32,000 nucleotides of DNA from Nanobdellota archaeon (GTDB lineage Archaea; Nanobdellota; Nanobdellia; Woesearchaeales; GW2011-AR4), in NCBI GenBank assembly GCA_038046385.1, contig JBBSWH010000005.1:468-32467 (forward strand). Direction: 5' to 3'. Position 1 is the first letter of the stretch. Each line of letters starts with the position of its first letter. Positions 1-18,367 of this stretch are shown piece after piece. The notes beneath the pieces are model-generated. The model ran no database searches. It was not told the origin of the DNA and saw nothing but the letters and a program-made list of their open reading frames with translations. Both the position numbers and the translations under genes were made by a program.

Positions 1-2087
1 GCGCGCAGCAGTATGTTGTCCCAGACAGCATCCCAGTTTCCCGCCCACTCTTTTACATTGCCTGCAATTGCCTTAAGGATTTCAGAATCTCCATTAAGAA
101 GTTCGTCTGTAGGCAGCAATTCATCTTTTTTAGAGTCATATTTCATCAGGTCAACAAAACCTTTTTCCAGAATAGGATCATTTTCCCACTGCTTCCTGAC
201 TTCGGTTATTTGCGTTATTCTTCTCCATCTGTGAAGCCCGTCTGCGCTTTTTACCGGATTTGTGACAACAATAATGTCTGTTGCCTTGAAACTCGTTTTA
301 GGAACCTGCAGGTCATTGACAACTCTGTCATAAACACCATAAGGAGAGTCACCGTGTATTGTTCCTGCAACTACATTTGCCAATGCGCCAACTCTCATCG
401 CTTCATACAATGCAAGCGCTTCCTTGCTTCTTATTTCTCCGATTATCAAAGCAGAATCTCCCATTCTCAATGTTGTTCTTATTCCTTCATCTGCAGGCAC
501 TTCAGAAGATCCTTTTGATAATGCAGCTGCAACTTTCATCGGCTGGATGTTGTAGCCCAATTTTCTAAGTGAACTTGTCGGAAGTTCAAGAGTATCCTCT
601 ATTGTAATAACCCTGTATTTTCTCATTAATTCTACAAGAAATGACCCAAGAAGGCTTGTTTTTCCTGCGCTTCTTGTTCCTGCAACAAGCAATGATCTTG
701 AACCATCTATAAGGAAACTGATCAACCCAGCCCCCAATGGACTTATCATCTTGTTTTTCATAAACAAAGGAAGTGTCCATGGCTTGTCCCTGTGTCTTCT
801 AAATGAATATGCAAGACCATCAGGATTCAATGGGGGTGCAACAACTGCTATTCTTGCATTTGCTCCAGGCAAAAATAATTCTGTATCTAGTATTGGATTT
901 GCTTCGTCAAGCGGCCTTCCTGAAATCAGCCTTAATTTTGAAGCCCATGATTCGGATTCTGGCGCTGTAGGGATTATGTTTGTTTTGCAGTCTGCGTAAT
1001 CCTGATGGACTATAAATATCGGGGTTTCTCCCATTGGAGAATTTATGGATATATCCTGTATCTTTTCGTCCTGCAGAAGCACTTCTATTAATCCAAAGCC
1101 CACAGTGTACCTTACAAGAATTTTTGTCATCTCATCCACTTCATCTGAAGAAAGCTTGATGTTCCTGTAGCTCACAAGCTCTTCTATCAAATCCAAGCCA
1201 ATATTATAAAACACCTGGCGCATTCTTTCAGGGTCGATGAACTCCTGCCTTGTAGGCTTGTGCTCTGCCATTATTTTTCTTGCAGTGTCCAGAATTTCAT
1301 ATTTCTCCTCGCTTAATTTGAATTCCGGAGGATCCAGATGGTAAAGATATTGGACATTGTCCTGCAATTCAAATATTGTGACTTCTGTGTTCTTGCCAAT
1401 TTCGTAATTATCTACTTCCTCTGCGTCGGCAGGGAAAGTCGACATCAATTTTGTGAAAATAAAATCCGGCCTTATGTCCGGGGTTAAGATGCGCCTGTAA
1501 ACAGAACGGTCTCCGATTCTGTAGCCTGAAAGGTACTTTCTGGAATTTTCAATAATCTTTGTCTTGTCCAAAAGCGCCGAAAGGTACTGGAGTATTGCAA
1601 GATATTTTTGCGCTGACCTTACATAATCGTCGTCAAGCGACCTTTCAATTTTTATTCTCTCTTCCCTCGATACCCTTCTAAGCTCAACATAGGCGCCTAT
1701 AGGATCGCGCTTCAATAAATCTGCAGTGATGTTCTGTATTGTAGAATACCACTGCGGAGACCATCTAGAATATCTCGGATCGTTCATCAGCGTCGTATAT
1801 CCAAGAATATCTTTTCTTTTTGTCAGCTGGGAATATATTCTTGCTATCTCCTGTATCATTGACGTCTGAGAATAGTCATATTCGTAGTTTCTTTTCTGCA
1901 TGTAAATTATTTTTGTCACAATGCCGGCTTCTGAAAGAATGTCCACTGTTCTTGACATGCATACAGGATCATCTTCAAGAGAGGGGATATGCTGATACTG
2001 CTCCATATCTACCGATAGTATTGTTTCTTCCCCTTCCTTTATGACTTCATAAGTAAAGGGTTTTTTGGACTCTCCGAACAGAACCAT
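1..2087 (-). CDS. type II/IV secretion-system family ATPase (archaeal FlaI/PilB/VirB11-like); 3' end runs off the window
   Basis: Absent from the supplied ORF track because it is open at the window edge. My reverse-strand translation from the ATG at 2087 appears stop-free to position 1 (about 695 codons, read by eye; only the 641-720 segment was re-checked codon by codon) and begins MVLFGESKKPFTYEV. Walker A is LLVAGTRSAGKTSLLGS (about 650-700). Asp-box is RVITIEDTLELP. Walker B region is ALIIGEIRSKEALALYEAMRVG, followed by AGTIHGDSP. The plus-strand ORFs listed over 13-2044 are short shadows of this gene. Confidence 0.85.
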   Translation of the reverse strand, partial: MVLFGESKKPFTYEVIKEGEETILSVDMEQYQHIPSLEDDPVCMSRTVDILSEAGIVTKIIYMQKRNYEYDYSQTSMIQEIARIYSQLTKRKDILGYTTLMNDPRYSRWSPQWYSTIQNITADLLKRDPIGAYVELRRVSREERIKIERSLDDDYVRSAQKYLAILQYLSALLDKTKIIENSRKYLSGYRIGDRSVYRRILTPDIRPDFIFTKLMSTFPADAEEVDNYEIGKNTEVTIFELQDNVQYLYHLDPPEFKLSEEKYEILDTARKIMAEHKPTRQEFIDPERMRQVFYNIGLDLIEELVSYRNIKLSSDEVDEMTKILVRYTVGFGLIEVLLQDEKIQDISINSPMGETPIFIVHQDYADCKTNIIPTAPESESWASKLRLISGRPLDEANPILDTELFLPGANARIAVVAPPLNPDGLAYSFRRHRDKPWTLPLFMKNKMISPLGAGLISFLIDGSRSLLVAGTRSAGKTSLLGSFLVELMRKYRVITIEDTLELPTSSLRKLGYNIQPMKVAAALSKGSSEVPADEGIRTTLRMGDSALIIGEIRSKEALALYEAMRVGALANVVAGTIHGDSPYGVYDRVVNDLQVPKTSFKATDIIVVTNPVKSADGLHRWRRITQITEVRKQWENDPILEKGFVDLMKYDSKKDELLPTDELLNGDSEILKAIAGNVKEWAGNWDAVWDNILLR

Positions 2088-2548: not shown

Positions 2549-2558
2549 TTTTATATAA
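2549..2558 (+). promoter_or_regulatory. archaeal TATA-box-like element (TTTTATATAA) for the 2577 operon
   Basis: Centred about 24 nt upstream of the ATG at 2577, which suggests a leaderless or near-leaderless transcript. Confidence 0.4.
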
Positions 2559-2576: not shown

Positions 2577-3365
2577 ATGATGAAACTTAAATGGAGCTTT
2601 AAGAATCTTGAATTCTTTGAAAGCTTAAGGATTGCAAAAGCGAATATTGGAAAATCCGGCTTGATGCTGCTTTTTGATGTTTCTTTCTTTGCTTCATTCT
2701 ATTATATCATACCGCTGCTGTTCGAGTACATTGCCTCAAAAATAACCCCTTCACAGACGCAAACATTCTTGTTTTTGGTGCTGCTTATGTCAGTTGGATA
2801 TTTACTTCTGATGACACTTGTCTATTCTTTTTTCAAATATTCCCTGCTTGAGATAGTAAAGTCGCTGTTTCAGAAGAAATCTTTTTCATTTGCGAGATTA
2901 TGGAATTTTTGCCTGATGAACATAATTATAATACTGCCTACATTCCTAATTTTCAACGCAGTATTGGGCGGAGTAAAAGAAGCTTACAGGCCCTATGCAT
3001 TTGTTTTGCTAGGAATTCCTGTTTCATTGCTTCTTTACGCAGCCATAAACATTTCCCATTCTTTGTTTTATGAGGGGGCTTCATTGAAGAAATCACTGAA
3101 AGCCGGGTTTAATGTTACATTCAGCAAAATACATATTTACAAAGAACAGATCGGCGCATTTGCATTGGCAGGAATTTCACTATGGGCGCTATTTTTAATT
3201 TTTGGATTTGCTTTAAGGAGCTTCACATCTCAAAATTATACTTTGTACCTTAGTGCATATTCTTATCTTACGAATGCAGAGTATATCATCTCATATCTTG
3301 TATTTTATTTTGTAATTTTTGTTAACAGAATTTCATTTTACAGAATACTGAGGGAGATGAAATGA
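2577..3365 (+). CDS. multi-pass membrane protein, unknown function
   Basis: 262-aa ORF with about 6-7 hydrophobic segments and no motif I recognise. Its stop lies 1 nt before the lgt ATG, so it is likely co-transcribed. Confidence 0.6.
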   Translation: MMKLKWSFKNLEFFESLRIAKANIGKSGLMLLFDVSFFASFYYIIPLLFEYIASKITPSQTQTFLFLVLLMSVGYLLLMTLVYSFFKYSLLEIVKSLFQKKSFSFARLWNFCLMNIIIILPTFLIFNAVLGGVKEAYRPYAFVLLGIPVSLLLYAAINISHSLFYEGASLKKSLKAGFNVTFSKIHIYKEQIGAFALAGISLWALFLIFGFALRSFTSQNYTLYLSAYSYLTNAEYIISYLVFYFVIFVNRISFYRILREMK

Positions 3366-3366
3366 G

Positions 3367-4158
3367 ATGTTCTACCACAACATAGACCCGGTTTTGCTCG
3401 GAATCGGAATTTTTCAGATTAGATACTATGGGCTTTTTTATGCAGCAGGATTCCTTATGCTATATTATCTTATGCCTTATCTTGCAAAGATTAAAGGGAT
3501 TAAGTTTACAAAAGATGACGCTGCTGATTTTCTGGTTTATGCGATAATTGGGGTAGTTGCCGGGGCAAGAGCAGGATATATCCTGTTTTATAATCTGCCA
3601 TTTTATTTACAGAATCCGCTCGATATACTTGCTGTCTGGAACGGCGGCCTGAGCTTCCACGGAGGGATTATCGGATTAGCTGTATCCACTTGGATTTTTT
3701 GCAGGGAAAAAAAAATAAATTTCTTTGACCTTGCAGACATAATTGTTGTGCCTGCTGCCCTTGCGCTTGCTCTTGGAAGAATGGGAAATTTCATGAACGC
3801 CGAGCTTTTTGGAAGAATAACCGATGTTTCATGGTGCATTGACTACTCAAAAAATGTTTTTGTGCAGGGATTGCCTGAAGGATGCAGGCACCCGTCTCAG
3901 ATTTATGCTTCTCTGAAGAACCTCGTTATATTCGGCGTTTTGTGGCGCATTAAAGACAGAAAACTGCCTTCCGGCTTTATGTTCTGGACTTTTGTTGCTT
4001 TATACGGGCTTCTTAGGACATTTATTGAGTTTTTCAGGCAGCCGGACGAGCAGGTTGGTTTTATTTTCCAATATTTCACAATGGGGCAGCTGCTTAGCTT
4101 TCCGCTTTTCCTTATAGGGATTTACATGCTTTATAGGTTAAAAAATAAATTCCAATGA
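3367..4158 (+). CDS. lgt: prolipoprotein diacylglyceryl transferase (Lgt), canonical signature
   Basis: N-terminal IRYYGLFYAAGF, LSFHGGIIG (the HGG motif) and GRMGNFMNAELFGR. The last matches the Lgt signature G-R-x-G-N-F-x-N-x-E-x-x-G. 263 aa, polytopic. Confidence 0.85.
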   Translation: MFYHNIDPVLLGIGIFQIRYYGLFYAAGFLMLYYLMPYLAKIKGIKFTKDDAADFLVYAIIGVVAGARAGYILFYNLPFYLQNPLDILAVWNGGLSFHGGIIGLAVSTWIFCREKKINFFDLADIIVVPAALALALGRMGNFMNAELFGRITDVSWCIDYSKNVFVQGLPEGCRHPSQIYASLKNLVIFGVLWRIKDRKLPSGFMFWTFVALYGLLRTFIEFFRQPDEQVGFIFQYFTMGQLLSFPLFLIGIYMLYRLKNKFQ

Positions 4159-4709
4159 AATTTTTAGGTGGCTTAAAACTAGATGCAGTAAAATATTCTT
4201 TAATTATTGTACTGAAAAGCCCCTTGCATATTTTCATTACTTTATTTGGGGGATTTATTATGATATCCTTTTCGATTTTGATTATGAACGCATCCTTGAT
4301 TCTAGACGGCATGTCTCCTGCATACACTATATTTGATAGAATTACTTTGGCTTTCAATCTTCTTGGCGGGCTTTTCACAAATAATTCTTTGCTTGGCGCA
4401 ATGCTTTTGATAACTGCATCATTGCTTTCAGGCCTGAATTTAGCATTGCTTTTCATCAAAATAAGGAATATAAAAAATGTCAGCTACAAGGAAAGCGGGT
4501 TAAGCTCCAGCGGCACGATTGCAAGCATAATGGCTTCTGGCTGCACATCCTGCGGAATAAGCATTTTATCAATTATTGGATTTGCAGGCATTCTGGCATT
4601 TTTGCCTTTCAATGGCTTGGAACTCGGATTCGCAGGAATTTTGCTGCTGCTGTTCTCTATTTATTGGAATTCAAAGAAATTTAAAAACTACAAAACCTGT
4701 AATGTTTAA
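4155..4709 (+). CDS. 4-TM membrane protein with intramembrane CxxC (GCTSCG), uncharacterised; paralog of 15726-16172
   Basis: ATGA start/stop overlap with lgt. Hydrophobic profile. The motif SSSGTIASIMASGCTSCGISILSIIGFAGILAFLPFNGLE aligns by eye with the 15726 product. Confidence 0.7.
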   Translation: MKFLGGLKLDAVKYSLIIVLKSPLHIFITLFGGFIMISFSILIMNASLILDGMSPAYTIFDRITLAFNLLGGLFTNNSLLGAMLLITASLLSGLNLALLFIKIRNIKNVSYKESGLSSSGTIASIMASGCTSCGISILSIIGFAGILAFLPFNGLELGFAGILLLLFSIYWNSKKFKNYKTCNV

Positions 4710-4713
4710 AGAT

Positions 4714-5490
4714 ATGGCCAAAAACAAAAAAAGAGCTGCTAGTGGATGGAGAAAATTAAAAATAAACGCATTTGCGATAACACTTTTTGTGATTATTATT
4801 TTGTCACTCTATATTTATTTTCTGAATGGACCATATATAAAAATGAATGGTAACTCTACAACAGAAAATCTGGAGCTTAAATCCAAGACAGACAGAAATG
4901 AAAATGCATTAATTGATGATGATGCCATCATGGGAAATGCTGATGCCCCTATAGCCATTATTGAGTTTGGCGACTTCATGTGCAAATTTTGCGGAGAATT
5001 GCACCGAGAAATTGAGCCAATCTGGAGGAAAGAATATATAGAGACAGGAAAGGCCAAGTATGTATTCAGAGATTTCGTATCAAGCGACCATCCTCAGGCA
5101 TACCCGGCTGCCGAGGCAAGCGAATGCGCAAATTTGCAGGGAAAGAAATGGCAGATGTATGACTTATTGTTTGACAATGCATATACTGGCGACAGCTGGG
5201 CAGGGATTAAAGACAGGGAAGCTCTTCTTAATATCTTCAAAAAATATGGAGAAAAAATAGGGCTGAACATGGAGCAATTCAGCCCATGCTTGTCAAATAA
5301 TTTCTTTGCCAATGAGATTAATAATGACATATTTGCCGGAGTAAGCACTGGAGTTTCAGGCACTCCGACCATTTTTATAGGCAATGACCAAACAGGATTT
5401 GCCAAAATTTTAGGATCTCAGCCTTATTCCGTCTACAAGCAGATTATAGATGAAAAATTAAACTGGAATTTGAGCAAAAGCAAAAAGTAA
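4714..5490 (+). CDS. membrane-anchored DsbA-like thiol:disulfide oxidoreductase
   Basis: MAKNKKRAASGWRKLK plus a TM anchor, then IAIIEFGDFMCKFCGELH (CxxC) and a late GTPTIF (cis-Pro loop). An alternative in-frame ATG lies at 4702. The track start at 4576 lies inside the previous gene. Confidence 0.8.
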   Translation: MAKNKKRAASGWRKLKINAFAITLFVIIILSLYIYFLNGPYIKMNGNSTTENLELKSKTDRNENALIDDDAIMGNADAPIAIIEFGDFMCKFCGELHREIEPIWRKEYIETGKAKYVFRDFVSSDHPQAYPAAEASECANLQGKKWQMYDLLFDNAYTGDSWAGIKDREALLNIFKKYGEKIGLNMEQFSPCLSNNFFANEINNDIFAGVSTGVSGTPTIFIGNDQTGFAKILGSQPYSVYKQIIDEKLNWNLSKSKK

Positions 5491-5575: not shown

Positions 5576-5854
5576 TTATTCGTTTAATCCAAAAGAGCTG
5601 GTAAATTCTGCAATCATCTGGTATTTGCTAAGGTAATCAAATCCTTTCTGAGTCAGAGAGTATGTTTTGCTTTTATTGATTTTATTTTCAACTATAAACT
5701 CTTTTTGTATCAGTTCATTCATATATTCTAATAACATCTTGTTAGAAAGATTTGACTTGTAAAGAATATTAGTCGGCTTTATTTTTCCGTTCTTCTCTTT
5801 AATAACACTTAGGATGTCGAAGATTATCTGCAGCCTTTCTCTTTTTTTGCTCAT
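5576..5854 (-). CDS. small winged-helix DNA-binding protein (archaeal HTH_45-like)
   Basis: 92 aa. IIFDILSVIKEKNGKIKPTNILYKSNLSNKMLLEYMNELIQKEFIVE...YSLTQKGFDYL fits the wHTH pattern. ATGA overlap with the upstream membrane gene. Confidence 0.6.
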   Translation of the reverse strand: MSKKRERLQIIFDILSVIKEKNGKIKPTNILYKSNLSNKMLLEYMNELIQKEFIVENKINKSKTYSLTQKGFDYLSKYQMIAEFTSSFGLNE

Positions 5855-6513
5855 TGTCTTCTTGTTACGGCAATTAAGTTTATCAATATCAACGAGTAAG
5901 CAACAAGCTCAAGAATGTGACCAGCTACATAAAATGCCCCATGATCTATCGAAAATATAAAGTGAATTTTTCCAAAAAGCAAAAACAAAAATGCAATAAA
6001 AACTACGAGAGAATTGGTTTTCCGGTTCTTAAGGTAATTTCTTAGGTAGTAAAATGATATATAAATCAATAGCATTGACGAGATTACATAAAAAAAGTAC
6101 AGCTTATTGGAGCTTAAAAGCAAAACCAGCATAACTGCAGTTAACATCACTCCATACATTTTTGCATCTTTTCTCCTTAGCGTCATATAAACAATTGTAA
6201 CAAGCCCGGCAAGAAATAAAATCATATGCGCATAAACGCCAAGGATATTGAAGCCACGCGCCGCTGCCATTGTCTGCATGCTGCACCCGTCTGACATAGA
6301 ATAGCTTGCAGCGAAGTTCAAAAATGACTGGATGAAATAAGATGATGAAACCATCAAAAAAGAAAATCCAAACAATTTTGATTGCTTCTGGCCTGATAAG
6401 TTATAAATGTGGATAGCATAGGCCCCTACAAGAAGAGTTACTACAAAGAATATCATTTCAAGAAAAGAATTGTAGCCATAAAACCAGTAAGGCACTATAG
6501 GATAGTTCATCAT
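5851..6513 (-). CDS. about 7-TM membrane protein, unknown function
   Basis: The track start at 6519 is a TTG. The first ATG (MMNYPIV) is at 6513. Strongly hydrophobic and translationally coupled to the wHTH gene. Confidence 0.55.
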   Translation of the reverse strand: MMNYPIVPYWFYGYNSFLEMIFFVVTLLVGAYAIHIYNLSGQKQSKLFGFSFLMVSSSYFIQSFLNFAASYSMSDGCSMQTMAAARGFNILGVYAHMILFLAGLVTIVYMTLRRKDAKMYGVMLTAVMLVLLLSSNKLYFFYVISSMLLIYISFYYLRNYLKNRKTNSLVVFIAFLFLLFGKIHFIFSIDHGAFYVAGHILELVAYSLILINLIAVTRRQ

Positions 6514-6685
6514 AACCAAATTTCATTGTTGCCCTTTTTAAGCTTTACGAAGGACAACTCCTTATTTTTCCTTAATAACGCATTAATAAACGTCCCTATA
6601 TATTTCAACTGCATGATACTGAAAGCACACTGCATAATAACGCACATGAAAACAAAAGCACAGCAAAAATCAGGAGGACAATAAG

Positions 6686-6961
6686 ATGAACAATGAATCG
6701 TATGGATGGGCACTTGTCATAATTATACTGCTCCTTGTGTCGGGCGGCATGATGATGGGCCGCGGCTATATGGGAATTGGAATGGGCTTTGGATTTGTGC
6801 TTATGGCACTTTTTTGGCTGGCTGTTATCTGGCTGATTTTTGGGCTTGCATCCAGCAAATCTGACAAAAAAAAGCCCATAGAAATACTAGAGGAAAGGTA
6901 TGTTAAAGGAGAAATCCAAAAAAAGCAGTTTGAGCAGATGAAAAAGAAAATTCAAAGGTAA
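6686..6961 (+). CDS. SHOCT-domain membrane protein
   Basis: AGGAGG lies 9 nt upstream of the ATG. Two TM segments, then a C-terminal EILEERYVKGEIQKKQFEQMKKKI typical of the SHOCT short C-terminal domain. Confidence 0.65.
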   Translation: MNNESYGWALVIIILLLVSGGMMMGRGYMGIGMGFGFVLMALFWLAVIWLIFGLASSKSDKKKPIEILEERYVKGEIQKKQFEQMKKKIQR

Positions 6962-6965
6962 AACG

Positions 6966-7175
6966 ATGAATCACCCGCCAAAAACGAAAGATGGATTTTT
7001 TCATAATCTAAAACATAGCCATTTTTTCATGATTCTGTTGTGCATCGTCCCAGTAATAATGCTACTTGCTAGAAGCTCCTATCTTGGATGGAGGAGCAGC
7101 AATCTGCTCGTATTTGCATTATTTTTTGCATGCATGCTAAGCCACACGCTCATGATGAAAAATCATAATCACTAG
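6966..7175 (+). CDS. DUF2933-like small membrane protein with a His/Met-rich C-terminus
   Basis: 69 aa, two TM segments, CMLSHTLMMKNHNH tail. This resembles small proteins commonly found next to metal P-type ATPases. Confidence 0.5.
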   Translation: MNHPPKTKDGFFHNLKHSHFFMILLCIVPVIMLLARSSYLGWRSSNLLVFALFFACMLSHTLMMKNHNH

Positions 7176-7206
7176 GATAAATGTAAAAATGGCCGGAGGT
7201 GAAAAT

Positions 7207-7239
7207 ATGGGAAAAGGAAAAACAAAAGGGTGCTGTTAG
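7207..7239 (+). CDS. possible 10-codon mini-ORF MGKGKTKGCC
   Basis: GGAGGTG (7195-7201) lies 5 nt before the ATG at 7207. An in-frame upstream ATG at 7189 would give MAGGENMGKGKTKGCC. Very short, so coding status is unproven. Confidence 0.2.
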   Translation: MGKGKTKGCC

Positions 7240-7366
7240 AATATATCGGTTTTTATTTTTTGAAGATATTTGGATAGGTTAAGATAAAAAATTTGCACTT
7301 ATGCCACTACGGCTGCTTGCAGATTAACGCTGCAGCAAAAACAGTCAAGATACTAAAGGTATTAAA

Positions 7367-8041
7367 ATGGAAGAAGACACGTTTCGGATAAAAAAATCAT
7401 ATGCTTATGCAACGCTTGGGGTATTGCTGGCATTCGGATTTTTTATGTATTCGCTTGTGCTTAACAATAATAACATTTCTGCAACGCAAGGAACAAGGAT
7501 GATGAATGGCGATGCTAACACTGATTCGATGGCTGATCATCATAAGCCTGTTCAGGGAAAATCAAGCGGTTTTTTTGAGAGTGCAGTAGGAAAGCAGGCT
7601 CCTGAATTTGAACTGCAGGGCATTGAAGGAGCTGCTGTCAAATTAAGCGATTATAAAGGAAAAAATGTGATTTTGTTTTTCAGCGAAGGCAGCATGTGCT
7701 ATCCTTCGTGCTGGAATCAGATTGCAGCGCTTTCAAAGGATGAAAGATTAAATTCAGATGGCACAGTTGCACTGTCAATTGTTGTTGATTCGCCGGCGCA
7801 ATGGCAAAAAATAATGCAGAAAGCGCCTCAAATGGCAGAATCAAATATTCTTTTTGACACGGCCAAAAAAGCCTCATCGGATTATGATGTTATTTTCCTT
7901 GCATCTTCGATGCACAAGGGCTCTTATCCCGGGCACACTTATTTCATAATTGACGGGGAAGGAATAATACGATACACAAAAGATGATCCGTCAATGGCAA
8001 TAAGAAATGATGAGCTTGCTGCAGAATTGGCAAAACTTTGA
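7367..8041 (+). CDS. membrane-anchored AhpC/TSA (BCP/Prx-like) redoxin with Cx3C
   Basis: N-terminal TM anchor. APEFELQGIEGAAVKLSDYKGKNVILFFSEGSMCYPSCWNQIAAL resembles the Prx/BCP active-site region. Confidence 0.65.
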   Translation: MEEDTFRIKKSYAYATLGVLLAFGFFMYSLVLNNNNISATQGTRMMNGDANTDSMADHHKPVQGKSSGFFESAVGKQAPEFELQGIEGAAVKLSDYKGKNVILFFSEGSMCYPSCWNQIAALSKDERLNSDGTVALSIVVDSPAQWQKIMQKAPQMAESNILFDTAKKASSDYDVIFLASSMHKGSYPGHTYFIIDGEGIIRYTKDDPSMAIRNDELAAELAKL

Positions 8042-8050
8042 GGCTAATAA

Positions 8051-8911
8051 ATGGAACCGACATTCATAATAGCATCTTTTATCACAGCATTTGTTGCAGG
8101 AATAGCAGCATTGCTGGCTCCATGCTGCATAACTGTCCTGTTGCCAACTTACCTTAGCTCAATTTTCAGGCAGAAAAGAACCGTTGTTGCAATGACACTT
8201 GTTTTCTTTTTGGGACTGCTTGCCGTGTTTCTTCCGCTTGGGCTTGGATTTGCAAGCATCGGGACTTTGTTCAGCAAGAGCCATGACTGGCTTTTCATAG
8301 TTGGAGGAATTTTCCTATTAATGCTTGGAGCATCCATATTGCTGGGATTGCATTTTTCTTTATCATTTACAAAGCATCCGAAAACAAAAATAACAGGCGC
8401 GGTGTCTGTTTTCATTCTTGGAATATTTTCTGCTTTTGCAACGCTTTGCTGCGCCCCGGTTCTTGCAGGGGTCATGGCATTGTCTATACTGCCAGGCTCA
8501 ATTTTCTGGGGAGGTATGTACGCTCTTGCCTATGTTATCGGAATGATTACACCTTTGCTGCTGATAGCAGCATTCCTTGACAAATTTGATTTTACAAAGA
8601 AATTTGAGAAGCTAAGCCAAGGCGTGAATTACAGGATTGCCGGAAGAGAAGTCACAATAACAATTGCTGAAATGATTTCAGGAACGATGTTTTTATTGCT
8701 TGGAATCTTCATAATCTATCTTGCGCAGGCCGGCAAGCTTGCAATGGAAAACAGCGCTATGCAGACTTCCATAAATATTTTCATGAGCAATTTGACAGCA
8801 TCTATTAACAAATTCATTGCAGGAATGCCAACTATAGCCTGGATAGCCATTGCTGCCTTGCCGATTGCTGTGTTTTTGCTAAGAAAATTGAAAAGGAAAA
8901 CTTCAAAATGA
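8051..8911 (+). CDS. CcdA/DsbD-family thiol-disulfide transmembrane electron transporter-like protein
   Basis: About 6-8 TM segments. LLAPCCITVLLP in TM1 and ATLCCAPVLAG in a later TM give the two-repeat architecture of the DsbD/CcdA superfamily, but with vicinal Cys pairs. Confidence 0.65.
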   Translation: MEPTFIIASFITAFVAGIAALLAPCCITVLLPTYLSSIFRQKRTVVAMTLVFFLGLLAVFLPLGLGFASIGTLFSKSHDWLFIVGGIFLLMLGASILLGLHFSLSFTKHPKTKITGAVSVFILGIFSAFATLCCAPVLAGVMALSILPGSIFWGGMYALAYVIGMITPLLLIAAFLDKFDFTKKFEKLSQGVNYRIAGREVTITIAEMISGTMFLLLGIFIIYLAQAGKLAMENSAMQTSINIFMSNLTASINKFIAGMPTIAWIAIAALPIAVFLLRKLKRKTSK

Positions 8912-9672
8912 TTCCTTACAAGATAATTCCACCTTTGCAGATAGGTCCTTTTCATGTCAACATGTACGGGATTATGTTTGCGCTTGGAGCCTTCATTGCA
9001 ATCAAGATTGCTGCGAAGGAAGCCAGAAAAAGAAATGCAAAAGAAGATGTGATTCATGATATTGCTTTGTACCTTCTCTTTGGCGGCATTATAGGAGCAA
9101 GGCTTTTTTACGTTTTATTTTACTGGCCTAATGACGTGTCTTTTGATTTTTTCGATATTTTCAAAATATGGGAAGGTGGGCTTGCATTCTTTGGAGGGAT
9201 TATTGGAGCGATCATCGTAGGATACTACTACCTCAGAAAGCGCAATCTTAGTTTCTGGGCTTATGCGGACATTTTTACAATTCCCCTAATTATTGGCCAT
9301 ATATTTGGAAGAGCAGGGGATTACCTTACAGGAGGCCACCCAGGAAAAATAACTAATTTGCCTTGGGCAATATACATGGATAATGCTTTAAGGCACCCGG
9401 TTGTTCTGTATGAGATAATTGGCCTTTTTGCAATCCTTGGAATAATCTATCTATTAAAGAAAAAAAGCCATTTTGATGGATTCTTGTTTTGGCCATATAT
9501 AACCTTGTATTCAATCCAAAGATTGTTTTTGGATATTTTCAGGGCAGAGTCTACGGACCCAAAATTTTTGGGATTAACTCCGTCTCAATATATCGCCCTG
9601 ATTATTGTTGCTGTTAGCTTGTATGCGATAGCACGATTTAAATATAAAAAAATTCAAACGGAGGCGGTATAA
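8908..9672 (+). CDS. Lgt-family paralog with diverged catalytic signature
   Basis: ATGA overlap with the CcdA-like gene. Lgt-like features are GPFHVNMYGIMFALGAF, GGIIGARLFYVLFYW and WEGGLAFFGGIIGA. The signature reads GRAGDYLTGGHPG instead of GRxGNFxNxExxG, and HGG is replaced by FGG. Confidence 0.7.
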   Translation: MIPYKIIPPLQIGPFHVNMYGIMFALGAFIAIKIAAKEARKRNAKEDVIHDIALYLLFGGIIGARLFYVLFYWPNDVSFDFFDIFKIWEGGLAFFGGIIGAIIVGYYYLRKRNLSFWAYADIFTIPLIIGHIFGRAGDYLTGGHPGKITNLPWAIYMDNALRHPVVLYEIIGLFAILGIIYLLKKKSHFDGFLFWPYITLYSIQRLFLDIFRAESTDPKFLGLTPSQYIALIIVAVSLYAIARFKYKKIQTEAV

Positions 9673-9882
9673 ATGAAAAAAACAGTTTTGTTGATTGCAA
9701 TATTGGCTATTAGCGTTTTTTTGGCAGGATGCGCATCCAAACAAGGGAGTTATAATAATTATAATCAGCAAGCGCAAGGCCAGCAGGGCCAATATGTCGG
9801 CGGTGGATGTGGGGTTGCTCCAATGGCAGATTATGAAAGCACGCCTGTAGCAGATTTCAATAATGTGGATGCTAACTTGTAA
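9673..9882 (+). CDS. small lipoprotein (lipobox LAGC), Gln/Asn-rich
   Basis: MKKTVLLIAILAISVFLAGCASKQG. The ATG directly abuts the stop of the Lgt paralog. Confidence 0.6.
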   Translation: MKKTVLLIAILAISVFLAGCASKQGSYNNYNQQAQGQQGQYVGGGCGVAPMADYESTPVADFNNVDANL

Positions 9883-9890
9883 GATTAAAA

Positions 9891-10349
9891 ATGGAACTCT
9901 CAAAAAGAGAAAAACGAAAGCTTAAGCTAGAGGGGCTAAGGCAGGAAAGCCACAAAGCACAACAGGAATTTGAGCAAAGAACTGAAAAGCAAAAACAATT
10001 TGAGCCAGAACAGAAAAAATCCAAATGGAAAATCTATGGTGCAATTGCAATAGCTATTATTATTGTGCTGATATCCTTTTCTGCTTATTCTGCAGCAAAA
10101 CCCGGGCGTTATGATAATTTTGCAAGGTGCCTTACTTCCAAAGGGGCTGTTGTTTATGGGGCAATAGACTGGTGCAAATACACACAGGCGCAAAGAGCGA
10201 TGTTTGGAAATTCTTGGAAATATTTAAATTATCAGGATTTTACAAAATTGCAGGGAATACGAAAAACACCAACGTGGGTTATAGGCGGCAAATGGTACGA
10301 AAACGTGCAGACGTTTGATAGATTGTCTGAATTAACCGGATGCAGATAA
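9891..10349 (+). CDS. membrane-anchored thioredoxin-like domain of the type fused to VKOR, with CxxT instead of CxxC
   Basis: Charged N-terminus plus a TM segment. FARCLTSKGAVVYGAIDWCKYTQAQRAMFG...KTPTWVIGGKWYENVQTFDRLSELTGC parallels the YGAxWCPHCxxQKxxFG...YPTWxI.G pattern. Confidence 0.6.
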   Translation: MELSKREKRKLKLEGLRQESHKAQQEFEQRTEKQKQFEPEQKKSKWKIYGAIAIAIIIVLISFSAYSAAKPGRYDNFARCLTSKGAVVYGAIDWCKYTQAQRAMFGNSWKYLNYQDFTKLQGIRKTPTWVIGGKWYENVQTFDRLSELTGCR

Positions 10350-10403
10350 ATAATTGAAAAGGATATCAAGAAAAAGATAAAAAAAGCTGTTGATTTTATC
10401 TAA

Positions 10404-10823
10404 ATGAATATGAAAAACCTCAAGGAAAAAATCATTGGAGCAACTGGAAGCGTTTCAGGCGCCGCAAGCGTGCTTGGATCGTGGCAGATATGCCACAGCG
10501 TGTGCCTTGGAATAATTGCGCTTCTTGGCCTTATAGGAATAACAATAATCGGCATGCCGCTTGAGTTTCTCACAAGGATTGCTATTCCGATGTGGACAAT
10601 AGCAGTTTTGCTCCTTATAACTACATTTATCCTTTACAAAACCAAAAAATGCATTTCAAAAAATATGGTGATAATGAATACAGGAATAATAATTGCAGGA
10701 ACGCCATTTGCTCAAGTACAGCAATTCTCTATATTCTTTTGGTTTTTTGGGGGGCTGATAGCTGCTTATGGAATATTTTTAATGATAAAAGAAAGAAGAG
10801 AAATGAAATGTCATGAAAACTGA
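10404..10823 (+). CDS. 4-TM membrane protein with intramembrane Cx3C (ICHSVC); distant relative of the 4155 and 15726 products
   Basis: GSVSGAASVLGSWQICHSVCLGIIALLGLIGITIIGMPLEFL has the same layout: a Gly/Ser turn, a Cys pair, a TM helix, then P-x-E. Confidence 0.6.
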   Translation: MNMKNLKEKIIGATGSVSGAASVLGSWQICHSVCLGIIALLGLIGITIIGMPLEFLTRIAIPMWTIAVLLLITTFILYKTKKCISKNMVIMNTGIIIAGTPFAQVQQFSIFFWFFGGLIAAYGIFLMIKERREMKCHEN

Positions 10824-11259
10824 CTATTTAATTTATGGATTACTGATAGCGGTGATTGCAATTGCAGCATACACTTTTGCAGGAATGGTTGATAATCAGC
10901 CGGCAGCTGCACCCAACATCCAAAATAATGCCCAAGGATTCGGGTTGATATCCACCGGCGGCACGGATGATGGAAATGTTCAGGTTGATTTAACGCCAAA
11001 AGGGATTGTTAATGGGCAATTTCTTGTTGATTTTGCGATTAACACGCATTCTGTTGACTTAAGCCAGCTTGACCTGAAAAAAATAACAACGCTGGAATAC
11101 AGCGGGAAAAAAATCCAGCCATTGTCTGCCCCTGCATTAAGCGGGCATCACAACTCAGGCATAATTGCTTTTAACAGCGTTTCTGATTTAAAAAATTTCA
11201 AGATAACAATTGTTGGAATCCCCAACATTGAAGAAAGAGTTTTTGAGTGGAAATCCTAA
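10813..11259 (+). CDS. membrane-anchored exported protein with a GHH motif, unknown function
   Basis: 11-nt overlap with the previous gene. N-terminal TM anchor, then a beta-rich region: VDLTPKGIVNGQFLVDFAINTHSVDL...LSAPALSGHHNSGIIAF. Confidence 0.55.
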   Translation: MKTDYLIYGLLIAVIAIAAYTFAGMVDNQPAAAPNIQNNAQGFGLISTGGTDDGNVQVDLTPKGIVNGQFLVDFAINTHSVDLSQLDLKKITTLEYSGKKIQPLSAPALSGHHNSGIIAFNSVSDLKNFKITIVGIPNIEERVFEWKS

Positions 11260-11261
11260 AA

Positions 11262-12836
11262 ATGAGGAATATAAATTTAAATCATAAAATTGCAGTAATT
11301 ATGATAGTTTCTCTGCTCATAATATTGACCGCCTGCAGCCAGACTGATGATTCAATGCCTAATCATATGATGCCTATAAAAGAGATTTCTGAAGTGAAGC
11401 CGATTGGCAGAAGCGTTTCCGGGCTGGGAGAAGCAGAGCAATCAAGAATTGTTGAGTTAAAGGATAATCAAGCGTTTCAAATGGAAGCTAAGCCTATTGC
11501 CAAAGACATAAATGGCAATAAAATAATGATGTATGCTTACAATGGCCAGATGCCTGGCCCTTTGATAAAAGCAAAACAGGGCAGCTTAATTTATGTTAAT
11601 TTTACAAACAACATCGATATGGAAACAACAATCCATTGGCACGGAATAAGGTTAGATAACAAATTTGACGGTGTTGATGGGGCAAGCCAGAAGCCTGTGA
11701 AGCCAGGGGAAAGCTTTCTTTATGAAATCAGGCTTCCAGACGAAGGAATTTACTGGTATCATCCGCACATAAGGGAAGATTTGCAACAGGAACTTGGTTT
11801 GTATGGCAATATCTTAGTTGAGCCAAAAGACAAGGATTATTTCAATAAAGTGGATAATGAAATTGCTTTATTTTTGGATGACATAAAAATGAATGGCAAT
11901 GATATCGAGCCATTCAACAGCCAGTTTGCAACATTCACAATAATGGGCAGGTTTGGAAATGTGATGCTTGTGAATGGGGAAACGTACTATAGATTAAATG
12001 CAAATAAAGGAGAATCTGTAAGATTTTATTTGACTAATTCTGCAAACATAAGGACATTTAATTTTATGATTGGAGATCATAAGCTGAAGGTTGTAGGAAG
12101 CGATTCTGGCAAATATGAAAAAGAATCTATTGCCAACTCCATTATAATCTCTCCAGGTGAAAGATATACTGCAGAAGTTCTTTTTGACAAAGCAGGAATT
12201 TTCAAAATTATCCATAGAACTCCCAATAAAGACTACATTCTTGGAGAGGTTATTGTCAACGAAGCTTCTGGAAGTGTTAATGATGAATTTTATGAATTAA
12301 AGGAAAATGAAGAGATTAAGAGCTCAATAGCGCCCTTTAGAAGATATTTTTCTTCTGAGCCAGATTATATTTTCAATCTAGAAATAAATCAAGAATCTAT
12401 GGGGAAGATGGAAAGCAGAGCCAGCAATGAAGGCATAGAATGGGAAGACACGGGGCATGATGAAATGATGAATTCCATGTCGACAGCCAACAATGTAAGA
12501 TGGATGATTGTTGATGCTTTGACCGGCAAGGCAAATATGGACAATAATTACAAAGTTAAAGCTGGAGACATCAAAAAAATAAGATTTGTTAACGACAAAG
12601 ATTCCATGCACCCGATGCAACATCCAATGCATTTGCACGGGCAAAAGTTCCTTGTTTTAAGTGTTGACGGAGTTGAAAATGAAAATTTAGGATGGAAAGA
12701 CACTGTCCTTGTCCCTACGGGAAAAAATGTGGATATACTTATTGAGTTTTCAAACCCTGGAGAATGGATGCTCCACTGCCATATTGCAGAGCATCTTGAA
12801 GCCGGAATGGCAACAATGTTCACGGTCTCACAATAA
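11262..12836 (+). CDS. multicopper oxidase (laccase/CueO-like), lipoprotein
   Basis: All four MCO copper motifs are present: TIHWHGI, YWYHPHI, HPMHLHG and HCHIAEHLEAGM. Lipobox ILTAC. The track start at 11247 is a GTG inside the previous gene, and the first ATG is at 11262. Confidence 0.9.
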   Translation: MRNINLNHKIAVIMIVSLLIILTACSQTDDSMPNHMMPIKEISEVKPIGRSVSGLGEAEQSRIVELKDNQAFQMEAKPIAKDINGNKIMMYAYNGQMPGPLIKAKQGSLIYVNFTNNIDMETTIHWHGIRLDNKFDGVDGASQKPVKPGESFLYEIRLPDEGIYWYHPHIREDLQQELGLYGNILVEPKDKDYFNKVDNEIALFLDDIKMNGNDIEPFNSQFATFTIMGRFGNVMLVNGETYYRLNANKGESVRFYLTNSANIRTFNFMIGDHKLKVVGSDSGKYEKESIANSIIISPGERYTAEVLFDKAGIFKIIHRTPNKDYILGEVIVNEASGSVNDEFYELKENEEIKSSIAPFRRYFSSEPDYIFNLEINQESMGKMESRASNEGIEWEDTGHDEMMNSMSTANNVRWMIVDALTGKANMDNNYKVKAGDIKKIRFVNDKDSMHPMQHPMHLHGQKFLVLSVDGVENENLGWKDTVLVPTGKNVDILIEFSNPGEWMLHCHIAEHLEAGMATMFTVSQ

Positions 12837-12850
12837 TGGAGGTAATAAAA

Positions 12851-13051
12851 ATGAAACAAAATTTAGGTACAGTTGACAGAGTTTTGAGATTTGGATTGGC
12901 TTTTTGGTGGCTAGGGCCTTGGGCTCCGCAATACAGCGTTGAGTGGGTTAATTGGATAATTTTCCTTGTTGGCTGGATTGCGTTAATTGAAAGCTTTTTG
13001 GGATTTTGCTGGCTGCATAACATGTTTGGAATAAATAATATAAATCAATGA
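12851..13051 (+). CDS. DUF2892 (YgaP-like) small membrane protein
   Basis: GGAGGT (12838-12843) lies 7 nt before the ATG at 12851. MKQNLGTVDRVLRFGLAF...LIESFLGFCWLHNMFGIN fits the G-x-x-D-R-x-x-R ... G-x-C pattern. An alternative ATG at 12836 overlaps the MCO stop. Confidence 0.6.
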   Translation: MKQNLGTVDRVLRFGLAFWWLGPWAPQYSVEWVNWIIFLVGWIALIESFLGFCWLHNMFGINNINQ

Positions 13052-13122
13052 TAGAATTTTTGTAAGCTATGGAGATGAAGCATACCAACAACTAATAAAG
13101 CAAAGAACATCCATGACAGACT

Positions 13123-13713
13123 ATGCCAAAAATCACTAGAAAGTTGAATGCGGGCTATTTTTTGGCAGCAATTATCACATTGATATTGGCTTTTGTCATC
13201 TATGAATTTTCAAGCAATGGCAAACTTGAAGAAAAATCAACAACAGTTTATCAAAACCTGAATCAGGTGCAAGTTATCGGCACCAGAGTTGGCCAAGCCC
13301 CTTCGGATTTTGTTGCAATAACTACAGAAGGAAATCCAGTAAGGCTATATGATTTCATTGAGCAGAAAAAGCCAGTTATTGTATATTTTATGGCAACTTG
13401 GTGCCCATGGTGCGCAAAGGACTATGCCGCATTATCAAAAGTATACAAGAAATATGAAGATAATATAACTTTTATATCAATAAGCCTTGATTTGAGTGAA
13501 GATTTCCTTGAACTTAGGGAATATAAGAAAAAATACCCGGAACTGCAAAAAACAATATTTGCCCAGGGGCAGGAAAGAATACTTATTGATTATAGAATAA
13601 CAAAAACAACAACAAAATATGCAATAGGCAGTAATGGAACCATAGCATACTTCGCAATTGGCGCATTTGATGAAAAAGAATGGGAAATTTTGTTGAATAA
13701 ACTTAGCAGTTAG
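13123..13713 (+). CDS. membrane-anchored TlpA/ResA-like thiol-disulfide oxidoreductase
   Basis: TM anchor, then PVIVYFMATWCPWCAKDY (WCxxC) in a redoxin-fold context. Confidence 0.8.
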   Translation: MPKITRKLNAGYFLAAIITLILAFVIYEFSSNGKLEEKSTTVYQNLNQVQVIGTRVGQAPSDFVAITTEGNPVRLYDFIEQKKPVIVYFMATWCPWCAKDYAALSKVYKKYEDNITFISISLDLSEDFLELREYKKKYPELQKTIFAQGQERILIDYRITKTTTKYAIGSNGTIAYFAIGAFDEKEWEILLNKLSS

Positions 13714-13863
13714 GATAAAAATAACATTTGTATTCTTATGATTGTGTGCCTACTTGTGGAGCCCACTAAAGAAGCAAAGCTGATAATCTGCCACAATGCT
13801 TCACAACCCATTAAATCAGAAACTATGGCTGCACCTACAGTTTTCTTGGAACTAAGCAAAAGC

Positions 13864-13898
13864 TTTAAATATATGTTATTAATAACATATGTTATTAA
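13864..13898 (+). promoter_or_regulatory. TATA box plus a perfect 20-bp palindromic operator upstream of the ArsR-family gene
   Basis: TTTAAATA at 13864-13871. ATATGTTATTAATAACATAT at 13871-13890 is a perfect palindrome. ATATGTTATTAA recurs directly at 13887-13898. The ATG is at 13905. Confidence 0.6.
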
Positions 13899-13904
13899 AG
13901 CAAA

Positions 13905-14207
13905 ATGAAAACTCAATTAAGGCAGCCATACAGAACGTTTTTTGGGACGCTGGACAACCAGCACAGGATAGACATAATAGAGGCGCTCAGCAAAGAGGTA
14001 ATGAATGTTTCAAGCATTTGCAAAAAGACAGGATATGAGCAGTCCACAGTATCACACAGCCTCCAAAGGCTTGAGCACTGCGGATTTGTTTCTGTAAAGC
14101 AGAAAGGCAAGGAAAGAATATACACACTAAATAAGGATACTATCAAGCCGCTGATTAAGCTTATGAACAAGCACATTAAAAACCACTGCAGCAGGATATG
14201 CCATTAA
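13905..14207 (+). CDS. ArsR/SmtB-family metalloregulator
   Basis: RIDIIEALSKEVMNVSSICKKTGYEQSTVSHSLQRLEHCGFVSVKQKGKERIYTLN is a wHTH of ArsR type. C-terminal Cys/His cluster HIKNHCSRICH. Confidence 0.8.
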   Translation: MKTQLRQPYRTFFGTLDNQHRIDIIEALSKEVMNVSSICKKTGYEQSTVSHSLQRLEHCGFVSVKQKGKERIYTLNKDTIKPLIKLMNKHIKNHCSRICH

Positions 14208-14208
14208 A

Positions 14209-14415
14209 ATGACAAAATACAATATTTCAATACAGGGAATGCACTGCAAGAGCTGCAAAATGCTTGTAGATGACATTTTGTGCGATTCTGGCGCAAAATC
14301 AATAAAAATAGAAGTTGATGATAAGAAAAAAATTGGAAAAGCCTCCTTTGAATTTTCGGGGAATTTTAATGAGCTTAAAAAAGAAATAGAAAGCAACGGA
14401 TATAAGGTGAAGTAA
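14209..14415 (+). CDS. copZ: heavy-metal-associated (HMA) copper chaperone, CopZ-like
   Basis: 68 aa. ISIQGMHCKSCK contains the MxCxxC motif. Confidence 0.8.
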   Translation: MTKYNISIQGMHCKSCKMLVDDILCDSGAKSIKIEVDDKKKIGKASFEFSGNFNELKKEIESNGYKVK

Positions 14416-15341
14416 TGCACGTTAAAGTTTACTGCCCGGACATTGAATGCGATTCCTGCGCAAGGCTCCTTAAAAGGAGTTTTGAGAAAGCTGAAGGAAT
14501 TGTAAAATTTGAAATAAACAAAGAATCAATTGATTTTGAGTACAACCGTGGCGAATCAAGCGTCGAGATGATTCTTAAAATAATACGCAGCAAGGGATTC
14601 AGGGCTTCGCTTGAGCCGTTTATAAGAAAAAATTTTAAGGAGCGCTTGAGGGACTTCAGGGAAAACAAAAGCAAGTATGAGCTGGAATACAGAATGCTGA
14701 ATTATTTGTTGTTTAACCTGTTTTGCCTGCTTGTTTTTAATGCAGCAGTATATCTTATTTTTTTAAAAAATGTGCCTGATTTTCTCCAGAGATACGGCTG
14801 GTGGGCATTTTATACTATGATTTCAATAGCAAGCATAGGCACTGCAATGTGGCACTTCAGGTCATACAAAGGCGAAGTGACTTCAATGACCGGGATGATG
14901 ATCGGGATGACATTCGGCATGCAGACCGGGCTTATGATTGGGACGATAATAGGGGCAACAAACGGAATTTTTATAGGAAGCATGGCCGGGATGCTATCAG
15001 CAGTCATTGTCGGGATTTACAACGGCAAATGCTGCGGAATTATGGGTATTCTTGAAGGAGTTATGGCAGGGCTGATGGGCGGGACAATGGGAGGCATGAT
15101 AGGGGTCATGATGTTCGCAGACCATATACTCTGGTTCATGCCGTTTTTCTTTTTGATAAATATTGCAGTAATGCTTGGCCTTTCTTACATGCTGTTTGAA
15201 GAATTTGTCGAAGACAATGAAAAAACCAAAAAAGATGAAGTCAAGCTGTGGAAGCTGATTGCAGCCAGCATAATAGTAATGGCTGTTTTTCTGGTGATTA
15301 TGGTTTATGCCCCAAAGTCCGGGCTGGCAAGAGTGATTTAA
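14415..15341 (+). CDS. fusion of an atypical HMA-like domain to a Gly/Met-rich polytopic membrane domain (unknown family)
   Basis: TAATG overlap with copZ. The N-terminus VKVYCPDIECDSCARLLKRSFEKAEGI is ferredoxin-like HMA. The C-terminus reads MTGMMIGMTFGMQTGLMIGTIIGATNGIFIGSMAGM...NGKCCGIMGILEGVMAGLMGGTMGGMIGVMMF. Confidence 0.65.
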   Translation: MHVKVYCPDIECDSCARLLKRSFEKAEGIVKFEINKESIDFEYNRGESSVEMILKIIRSKGFRASLEPFIRKNFKERLRDFRENKSKYELEYRMLNYLLFNLFCLLVFNAAVYLIFLKNVPDFLQRYGWWAFYTMISIASIGTAMWHFRSYKGEVTSMTGMMIGMTFGMQTGLMIGTIIGATNGIFIGSMAGMLSAVIVGIYNGKCCGIMGILEGVMAGLMGGTMGGMIGVMMFADHILWFMPFFFLINIAVMLGLSYMLFEEFVEDNEKTKKDEVKLWKLIAASIIVMAVFLVIMVYAPKSGLARVI

Positions 15342-15713
15342 ATGAAAAAAACAGCCTTATTGTTTTTCCTTGCCATATTTATCACGGCATGCTCTTCCAA
15401 TGCGCCAATCTCTCCCCAGTCTTCTAATTCAGAAGCAAAAATTGTAGACGGAATGCAGGCCATAACACTAAGCTGGGGGAAATTCAATTATGAGCCTGCA
15501 ACGATGAAATTCAAGCTGGGAGTTCCTGCAAGAATCTACGGAGACCTTACAAGACTGCAGGGCTGCTTCAGATCTTTTGAGATTCCTGAACTAGGAGTTT
15601 CTACGGTTTTTTCCCAAAGAAAAAATTATGTTGATTTTATGCCTGATCAAGAAGGAAGATTCACGTTTGCATGCTCCATGGGAATGGGCAGCGGCACAAT
15701 AATAGTCGAATAA
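15342..15713 (+). CDS. cupredoxin-like lipoprotein
   Basis: Lipobox FITAC. ATMKFKLGVPARIYGD...FEIPELGV...DQEGRFTFACSMGMGSGTIIVE resembles the small cupredoxin_1-type domains found beside copA genes. Confidence 0.5.
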   Translation: MKKTALLFFLAIFITACSSNAPISPQSSNSEAKIVDGMQAITLSWGKFNYEPATMKFKLGVPARIYGDLTRLQGCFRSFEIPELGVSTVFSQRKNYVDFMPDQEGRFTFACSMGMGSGTIIVE

Positions 15714-15725
15714 TAGCTGAATAAA

Positions 15726-16172
15726 ATGAAAATAATCTTCAAAAAGCCTTATTTATACTGGACATTCGGAATATTTTTTGGATATTTCTTATTGAATGCC
15801 TACCTAAGCGATTTTTTTTATGACATGAAGTTTATCGGGTACTACCTGGAGACTATAAACTGGGGCAAATTTGTTATTAGCGTATCTTTGTCTGTTTTAA
15901 TTGCTGCTCTTGTGGCGGCAAATGCAGTATACCTTTACATAAGGTATAAAGAGCATAAAAATCTCAAAGTTGAGGGAACCCTGGCCTGTGCAGGAACTTT
16001 TGGTGGATTGGCAACCGGGGTCTGTTCAATATGCGCTGCAGGAATCCTTCCATTTATGCTTGATTTAATGGGAATCTCATTCACTTTTGGAACGCTTCCA
16101 TTGAAAGGAATTGAAATCCAGATTTTGACTGCTGCATTATTATTTGCCGGCTTGTGGGGGATAAAAAAATGA
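15726..16172 (+). CDS. 4-TM membrane protein with intramembrane CxxC (VCSICA); paralog of 4155-4709
   Basis: LACAGTFGGLATGVCSICAAGILPFMLDLMGISFTFGTLPLKGIE. ATGA overlap with the copA ATG at 16169. Confidence 0.7.
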   Translation: MKIIFKKPYLYWTFGIFFGYFLLNAYLSDFFYDMKFIGYYLETINWGKFVISVSLSVLIAALVAANAVYLYIRYKEHKNLKVEGTLACAGTFGGLATGVCSICAAGILPFMLDLMGISFTFGTLPLKGIEIQILTAALLFAGLWGIKK

Positions 16173-18358: not shown

Positions 18359-18367
18359 GTGATTTAA

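Follow-up and report, generated by a model that had tools for sequence, protein, structure and literature searches.

The window analysed here is a stretch of 32,000 nucleotides (positions 468 to 32,467 of contig JBBSWH010000005.1, assembly GCA_038046385.1) from a Nanobdellota archaeon. It harbours a gene of the prolipoprotein diacylglyceryl-transferase (Lgt) family, whose product we call Lgt1, together with four genes coding for lipobox proteins.

3367-4158, forward strand: Lgt1, ATG start, 263 residues, prolipoprotein diacylglyceryl-transferase family, canonical type
9673-9882, forward strand: 69-residue lipobox protein, LAGC with Cys20, candidate Lgt substrate
11262-12836, forward strand: multicopper oxidase with Cu-oxidase domains, Sec-type signal peptide, LTAC with Cys25, predicted Lgt substrate
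15342-15713, forward strand: cupredoxin-like protein (PF13473), ITAC with Cys17, predicted Lgt substrate
21613-22773, forward strand: LivK-type ABC substrate-binding protein (PF13458, 213.7 bits), LAAC with Cys19, predicted Lgt substrate

Lgt1 is a bona fide member of the Lgt family on all the sequence and fold criteria that were tested. It matches PF01790 over profile positions 1-239 of 240 (252.2 bits, E 5.6e-75, cutoff 24.9) and the TIGR00544 'lgt' equivalog of NCBIfam (199.6 bits, cutoff 118.9). Alignment with Escherichia coli Lgt, taken from NC_000913, gave 37% identity, and the structures of that enzyme, 5AZB/5AZC, are the only sequence relative of Lgt1 in the PDB (E 2.9e-47). A first-pass annotation, made by reading the DNA, had claimed a full catalytic signature for this product, and these analyses bear it out. 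The two motifs that it named, LSFHGGIIG and GRMGNFMNAELFGR, are both present and align with H103-GGL and G142-G154 of E. coli Lgt, the former facing S101-F102-H103-G104-G105. The signature GRMGNFMNAELFG corresponds to G142-R-x-G-N-F-x-N-x-E-x-x-G154, with R143, N146, E151 and G154, and is conserved at all positions.

We then tabulated the positions that are essential or belong to the catalytic hydrogen-bond network in E. coli Lgt according to Mao et al. 2016 (PMC4728403). Lgt1 retains all five residues of the network, Y26, Y235, R239, E243 and R246 (buried), as well as G27, Y30, Y80, S101, F102, H103, G104, G105, D129, G142, R143, G145, N146, N149, E151, G154 and P197 (E. coli numbering). Its only departures from the E. 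coli enzyme at the tabulated positions are G138A, E202A and W256I; in E. coli Lgt, G138A is tolerated and E202A leaves partial activity (PMC4728403). The same study showed that H103, at the start of the third transmembrane segment in the HGGL motif, is essential and that E151 binds the glycerol head group of phosphatidylglycerol. The AlphaFold2 model of Lgt1, built from a 54-sequence alignment (pLDDT 91.1, pTM 0.88), has the seven-transmembrane body with arm and head sub-domains of the 5AZB type, and 5azb was its sole significant match in a Foldseek search of the PDB (E 1.2e-15, TM-score 0.79). The head domain, of the periplasmic type, is composed of 31 residues in Lgt1 versus 47 in E. coli.

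The contig that encodes this enzyme is archaeal, not bacterial. The first-pass annotation had considered the window archaeal, and we found better markers than those it listed. The window itself codes for an archaeal-type phosphoenolpyruvate carboxylase (TIGR02751, 579.5 bits) and for a C-terminal portion of XPD; the full-length XPD/rad3 (265.7 bits, cutoff 247) is seen when the sequence is followed past the 3' end. An extension of 8.3 kb past that end (locus L019; retrieved loci are numbered in this way where they need to be told apart) codes for an RNase P Rpr2 subunit, a fragment of a diphthamide synthase and CarS, the CDP-2,3-bis-(O-geranylgeranyl)-sn-glycerol synthase (NF003114, 157.8 bits, cutoff 148). 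All these markers are located in the window or no further than 8.5 kb from it. They indicate neither a member of the Candidate Phyla Radiation nor another bacterium, and the named close homologues of Lgt1 are all labelled Woesearchaeota or Nanoarchaeota. One archaeal trait did not hold up: the intron-bearing tRNA reported earlier is not supported, as no tRNA was detected in the window with ARAGORN (default and intron modes) or with Rfam (gathering and E-value modes). The only tRNA-clan match in the window, a weak alpha_tmRNA hit of 18.7 bits at 1389-1518, lies inside the ATPase gene and was dismissed.

By misassembly or misbinning, a bacterial fragment carrying an Lgt gene might have ended up in an archaeal metagenome-assembled genome (MAG). 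The contig is indeed MAG-derived, the Lgt family is overwhelmingly bacterial and some sibling MAGs are labelled 'Methanosarcinales', implausibly. Nevertheless, the assembly data effectively refute this explanation, to which we attach a negligible probability. The window sequence is also present in contig CAYHVO010000002.1 (GCA_964360275.1; 302,696 bp), on which the archaeal phosphoenolpyruvate carboxylase, XPD, CarS and Rpr2 genes lie 22-36 kb from Lgt1 with uniform GC (0.35-0.42). Furthermore, the block composed of Lgt1, the three other genes of its operon and the adjacent ATPase gene emerged from independent assemblies of three further datasets, the ENA Hainich groundwater assemblies ERZ1292621 and ERZ1292620 and the Logan assembly ERR3858128, which argues against a chimera. 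The 3' part of the window and its archaeal flank were recovered on separate contigs in two of these three. Homologues are also carried by further Woesearchaeota contigs of considerable length (306 kb, 111 kb and 68 kb).

We collected at least 120 clusters of close homologues, 67-84% identical to Lgt1, and those that are named are all 'Candidatus Woesearchaeota archaeon' or 'Nanoarchaeota archaeon'. The catalytic residues, including His103, the signature motif and the hydrogen-bond network, are kept in 120 out of 120. Among GTDB species representatives, the sequences with 46-74% identity to Lgt1 come from Woesearchaeota MAGs or from third-party-annotation MAGs labelled 'Methanosarcinales', and the nearest bacterial loci are approximately 41% identical. 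Only one name appears among the 50%-identity representatives, Candidatus Peregrinibacteria (45% identity). In a neighbour-joining tree built from 189 sequences and bootstrapped 100 times, the archaeal Lgt1 clade is supported at 100%, as is the clade of a second Lgt-family protein of the window, Lgt2, described below. Because there are at least 120 homologues, all with the catalytic residues, in a fully supported clade, Lgt1 is a lineage-wide feature of Woesearchaeota-type DPANN under purifying selection, not a recent accident.

Three of the third-party-annotation MAGs (L006, L007 and L008) have an Lgt of the Woesearchaeota-like kind, with 49-70% identity to Lgt1, and bear the title 'uncultured Methanosarcinales archaeon'. 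That label looks wrong, and the MAG of the window itself belongs to this series of accessions.

The first-pass annotation had also placed lipoboxes in the four proteins listed above. We scanned the window in six frames for N-termini combining a positive N-region with a hydrophobic core and the motif [LVI][ASTVIG][GAS]C, the Cys being at 13-36, and obtained exactly these four proteins. When the window was reversed, the same scan had no hit, and 30 codon-shuffled versions of it gave 0.1 on average. None of the four harbours a twin-arginine motif, and they thus look like Sec substrates. The annotation had seen no signal peptidase II gene, and we found none in the window by Pfam scans of all larger ORFs, tblastn with E. 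coli LspA and a motif search. Extending the tblastn search and a three-motif regular expression to loci L001-L016 revealed nothing credible, and PF01252 is absent from the precomputed Pfam tables of the retrieved neighbourhoods (L001-L004 and L019-L024), which cover the contig flanks and related DPANN loci.

An archaeal phospholipid head-group cluster is located about 0.9-5 kb beyond the 3' end of the window (L019, 3494-7496). Next to CarS, it codes for a 340-residue fused double CDP-alcohol phosphatidyltransferase whose N-terminal half matches pgsA (182.5 bits, cutoff 109), a 355-residue fused protein, one half of which is of the pssA/archaetidylserine-synthase type, and an archaetidylserine decarboxylase. 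It is often stated that DPANN archaea have no lipid synthesis, which makes such a cluster unusual. The organism appears to make phospholipids derived from CDP-archaeol, including an analogue of phosphatidylglycerol.

Together, these data suggest the following model. An ancestor of Woesearchaeota-type DPANN would have acquired Lgt1 from bacteria, and the gene would have been kept under purifying selection. In the cytoplasmic membrane, the enzyme would have its active site at the outer leaflet and would recognize there Sec-exported lipobox precursors, the candidates in the window being the multicopper oxidase, the cupredoxin and LivK-type proteins and the 69-residue protein. It would move the glyceryl-lipid moiety of a phosphatidylglycerol-type lipid to the thiol of the +1 Cys, thereby forming a thioether anchor. 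With archaetidylglycerol made by the organism itself as the donor, the reaction would yield an S-archaeol-type cysteine. Lgt1 is likely to be a functional lipoprotein transferase. Archaetidylglycerol as its donor is plausible, if somewhat short of probable, given the CarS and PgsA-type genes on the contig and the conservation of E151 in Lgt1. Taken as a whole, we regard it as quite likely that this bacterial-family Lgt is functional in an archaeon and lipidates lipobox Cys residues, with archaetidylglycerol as the foremost candidate donor.

Several observations weigh against this model. Bootstrap values are below 40 at all deep nodes of the neighbour-joining tree, and the bacterial donor lineage of Lgt1 could not be placed. 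Of the bacterial pathway, signal peptidase II was not found in the sequence searched, so that the pathway looks incomplete. Neither GGGPS nor DGGGPS, of core archaeol synthesis, was seen in the window or in the contig sequence covered. Bacterial Lgt lipids are sn-1,2-diacyl, whereas archaeal lipids are sn-2,3 ethers whose backbone has the opposite chirality. Several lipid contacts in E. coli Lgt go to ester oxygens (PMC4728403), and the ether bonds and opposite chirality of archaetidylglycerol may or may not be tolerated by such a site.

Lgt1 might instead act on bacterial-type diacyl phosphatidylglycerol that the cell scavenges from bacterial neighbours or hosts, in which case the anchor would be diacylglyceryl rather than archaeol. 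The core archaeol genes, not seen in the sequence covered, fit this possibility by their absence there, as does the general view that DPANN archaea depend on partners for their lipids. Lgt1 is moreover a mainstream Lgt, sharing with the E. coli enzyme an identical signature motif and the head-group residue E151, and no adaptation of its lipid pocket was detected. Nevertheless, CarS, above its equivalog cutoff, and PgsA-type, PssA-type and decarboxylase genes on the same contig speak for endogenous archaeal phospholipids, and we consider scavenging unlikely.

Lgt1 might also have been retained without lipidating proteins any longer, for instance in lipid remodelling or in a structural role, the lipoboxes being processed by AliA-type or as yet undiscovered enzymes. 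AliA and AliB (arCOG02177 and arCOG02178; HVO_2859 and HVO_2611 of Haloferax volcanii) act on Sec (and Tat) lipoproteins and make S-archaeol-type cysteine in Haloferax (PMC12462473), and AliA has been reported in DPANN 'with some gaps' (PMC12462473). That no Lsp partner was found in the sequence searched would be in keeping with such a loss of function. However, the lipidation residues, including the peptide-binding HGG motif, are invariant in 120 homologues, and the gene lies in clusters rich in lipobox proteins. A non-lipidating Lgt1 is rated unlikely, slightly more so than one fed by scavenged lipids, and we favour a lipoprotein transferase that may use archaetidylglycerol.

Four closely packed genes form an operon in which Lgt1 comes second, and other genes are found on either side.

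1-2087, reverse strand, continuing into L001 at 6418-8721: T2SSE/TadA/FlaI-family ATPase, 767 residues, below every equivalog cutoff
2549-2557, forward strand: TATA-box-like TTTATATAA, some 20-28 nucleotides upstream of the ATG at 2577
2577-3365, forward strand: TM262, 262-residue, all-helical orphan membrane protein whose stop lies 1 nucleotide before the Lgt1 ATG
4260-4709, forward strand: TM149, third gene of the operon, 149-residue membrane protein with CTSC in a predicted transmembrane helix, no Pfam family
4702-5490, forward strand: fourth gene of the operon, membrane-anchored DsbA-like protein of thioredoxin fold with CKFC (PF13462, 80.5 bits; PF01323, 34 bits)
5576-5854 and 5851-6513, reverse strand: HTH_45 regulator and membrane protein pair, also in L008 (~14986-15981) and L022 (12853-13796)

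Read from the sequence, the position of TTTATATAA agrees with the TATA and leaderless geometry described in the first-pass annotation, and this element probably represents an archaeal promoter from which the TM262-Lgt1 operon would be transcribed as a leaderless messenger. The 'FlaI-like ATPase' of that annotation does belong to the T2SSE/TadA/FlaI family, but since it reaches no equivalog cutoff, FlaI is a family-level description only. In L001, the ATPase gene is followed by genes for four large proteins without Pfam domains. The pair formed by an HTH_45 regulator and a membrane protein, the latter about 220 residues long, is seen again and again near Lgt genes, in three different genomes.

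TM262 matched no Pfam family, and its AlphaFold2 model (pLDDT 88.6) had no fold match in the PDB with Foldseek. We collected 43 homologues, the sole named one being a Woesearchaeota hypothetical protein, and in five other loci (L005, L006, L007, L008 and L024) the gene is located directly 5' of Lgt1. We considered TM262 as an LspA analogue and rejected it: the confident model has no PDB match, and a single invariant Asp gives no support to an aspartyl-protease dyad. As a conserved neighbour of Lgt1, TM262 may be a partner or an accessory factor. Two Cys residues of the external head domain of Lgt1, C157 and C173, are invariant in 120 out of 120 clade members. Together with the next two genes, coding for the CTSC membrane protein and the DsbA-like protein, this suggests a disulfide-stabilized head domain and a local oxidative-folding module.

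The second Lgt-family gene, Lgt2, had been overlooked in the first-pass annotation. It belongs to a gene island related to copper and envelope thiols.

7367-18748, forward strand: copper and envelope-thiol island, an ordered set of genes of which parts recur beside Lgt genes in other DPANN genomes
8908-9672, forward strand: Lgt2, divergent Lgt-family paralog, 254 residues (PF01790, 191.9 bits; TIGR00544, 145.3 bits)
Lgt2-subfamily members elsewhere: L021, 10001-10687; L022, 10001-10759; L025, 3192-3941; L026, 3713-4474

The genes of the island code, in this order, for an AhpC/TSA-like protein, a CcdA-like protein, Lgt2, the small lipoprotein, three unknown membrane or secreted proteins, the multicopper oxidase lipoprotein, a YgaP-like transmembrane protein, a thioredoxin-like protein, an ArsR-type helix-turn-helix protein, an HMA-like membrane protein, the cupredoxin lipoprotein, a CopA P-type ATPase and a DUF302 protein. 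The start of Lgt2 overlaps the stop of the CcdA/DsbD_TM-like gene (ATGA) and is translationally coupled to it, and the gene for the 69-residue lipobox protein starts on the base following the Lgt2 stop. In related genomes, Lgt1-type genes too have Cu-ATPase clusters at most a few kb away.

Lgt2 is 29% identical to Lgt1 and is substituted at positions that are essential in E. coli (H103F, N146D, N149T, E151G and E243D). These substitutions are fixed in 113 family members, and position 103 is not a His in any of them. The family keeps Y26, R143, G154, Y235, R239 and R246. In an Aenigmarchaeota MAG and on another DPANN contig, members of the subfamily are encoded beside Cu-ATPase, YgaP-like transmembrane, DsbD_TM and glutaredoxin genes. 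A DPANN-specific subfamily was rejected, as two members are found on bacterial-looking contigs: L026 is clearly bacterial, with a two-component system and a penicillin-binding protein transpeptidase, and L025, with Metal_resist/LTXXQ, HMA and YHS proteins, is probably so. From its gene contexts, the Lgt2 subfamily is best described as an Lgt-like group associated with copper/thiol islands and occurring in both domains. As the substitutions are fixed in 113 relatives and the copper/thiol-redox context is steady, Lgt2 probably represents a neofunctionalized subfamily with a conserved, altered function rather than a decaying gene.

A reading that joins all these elements can be formulated tentatively. 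The acquired Lgt1 might replace or supplement AliA and transfer archaeol from archaetidylglycerol, with TM262 as an accessory factor or as the missing component of signal-peptide processing. Lgt2, devoid of His103, might be a second transferase with another donor or acceptor, serving under copper or thiol stress. We consider this combination possible, with less confidence than the core proposal for Lgt1.

In the current literature, Lgt is described as 'absent from archaea' in a RefSeq survey (mBio 2026, PMC13251419), and Hong et al. (Nat Commun 2025, PMC12462473) also state its absence. The view taken in the first-pass annotation, that Lgt is bacterial and that unrelated factors, AliA and AliB, lipidate archaeal proteins, therefore matches both papers. 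Both surveys were based on RefSeq or arCOG genomes, leaving uncultivated DPANN MAGs outside their sampling. Evolutionary arguments have been built on this absence: the lipids of archaea are said to have called for unrelated enzymes, and Lgt to offer a drug target specific to bacteria (PMC12462473, PMC13251419). We found no description of Lgt in DPANN or Woesearchaeota in the literature searched, and close homologues of Lgt1 already carry an Lgt annotation in NCBI and public databases. Lgt1 is an archaeal member of a known enzyme family, known to annotation pipelines yet missed by the current literature, which it contradicts.

The locus thus represents a large archaeal clade with an intact Lgt on contigs that also code for archaeal phospholipid synthesis. 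Hong et al. noted that some archaeal genomes are rich in predicted lipoproteins without AliA and AliB, and that further pathways of lipoprotein lipidation have yet to be discovered (PMC12462473). If active, Lgt1 would be a candidate lipidation route for such lipoprotein-bearing archaea, would test the use of opposite-chirality ether lipids by a bacterial membrane enzyme, and would make a clear example of inter-domain transfer of an envelope-biogenesis function among co-occurring ultra-small groundwater organisms. An Lgt working on archaeol would be a natural enzyme crossing of the lipid divide and an AliA-independent lipidation route in DPANN.

Compared with known systems, Lgt1 resembles bacterial Lgt (5AZB/5AZC) in family, fold, HGG and signature motifs, Arg/Glu/Tyr network and nearby lipobox substrates. 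It differs from it by its DPANN host, which has genes for CDP-archaeol-based phospholipids, and by a probable ether-lipid donor of opposite glycerol chirality, as well as by its shorter head, its two clade-invariant Cys residues, the TM262 gene upstream and an LspA not found in the sequence searched. With AliA and AliB, Lgt1 would share the task, thioether lipidation of the lipobox Cys, and also the product if archaetidylglycerol is the donor. Both Lgt1 and Lgt2 are strong PF01790 members, and the HHpred probability of AliA to that family is only 29% (PMC12462473), so by family assignment neither of them is AliA or AliB. Second Lgt paralogs with altered conserved residues have a precedent in a non-complementing Mycobacterium smegmatis homolog (PMC12462473). 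Like it, Lgt2 is a second Lgt copy with replacements at E. coli-essential residues; unlike it, Lgt2 has substitutions that are fixed in relatives of both domains and belongs to steady copper/thiol-redox clusters.

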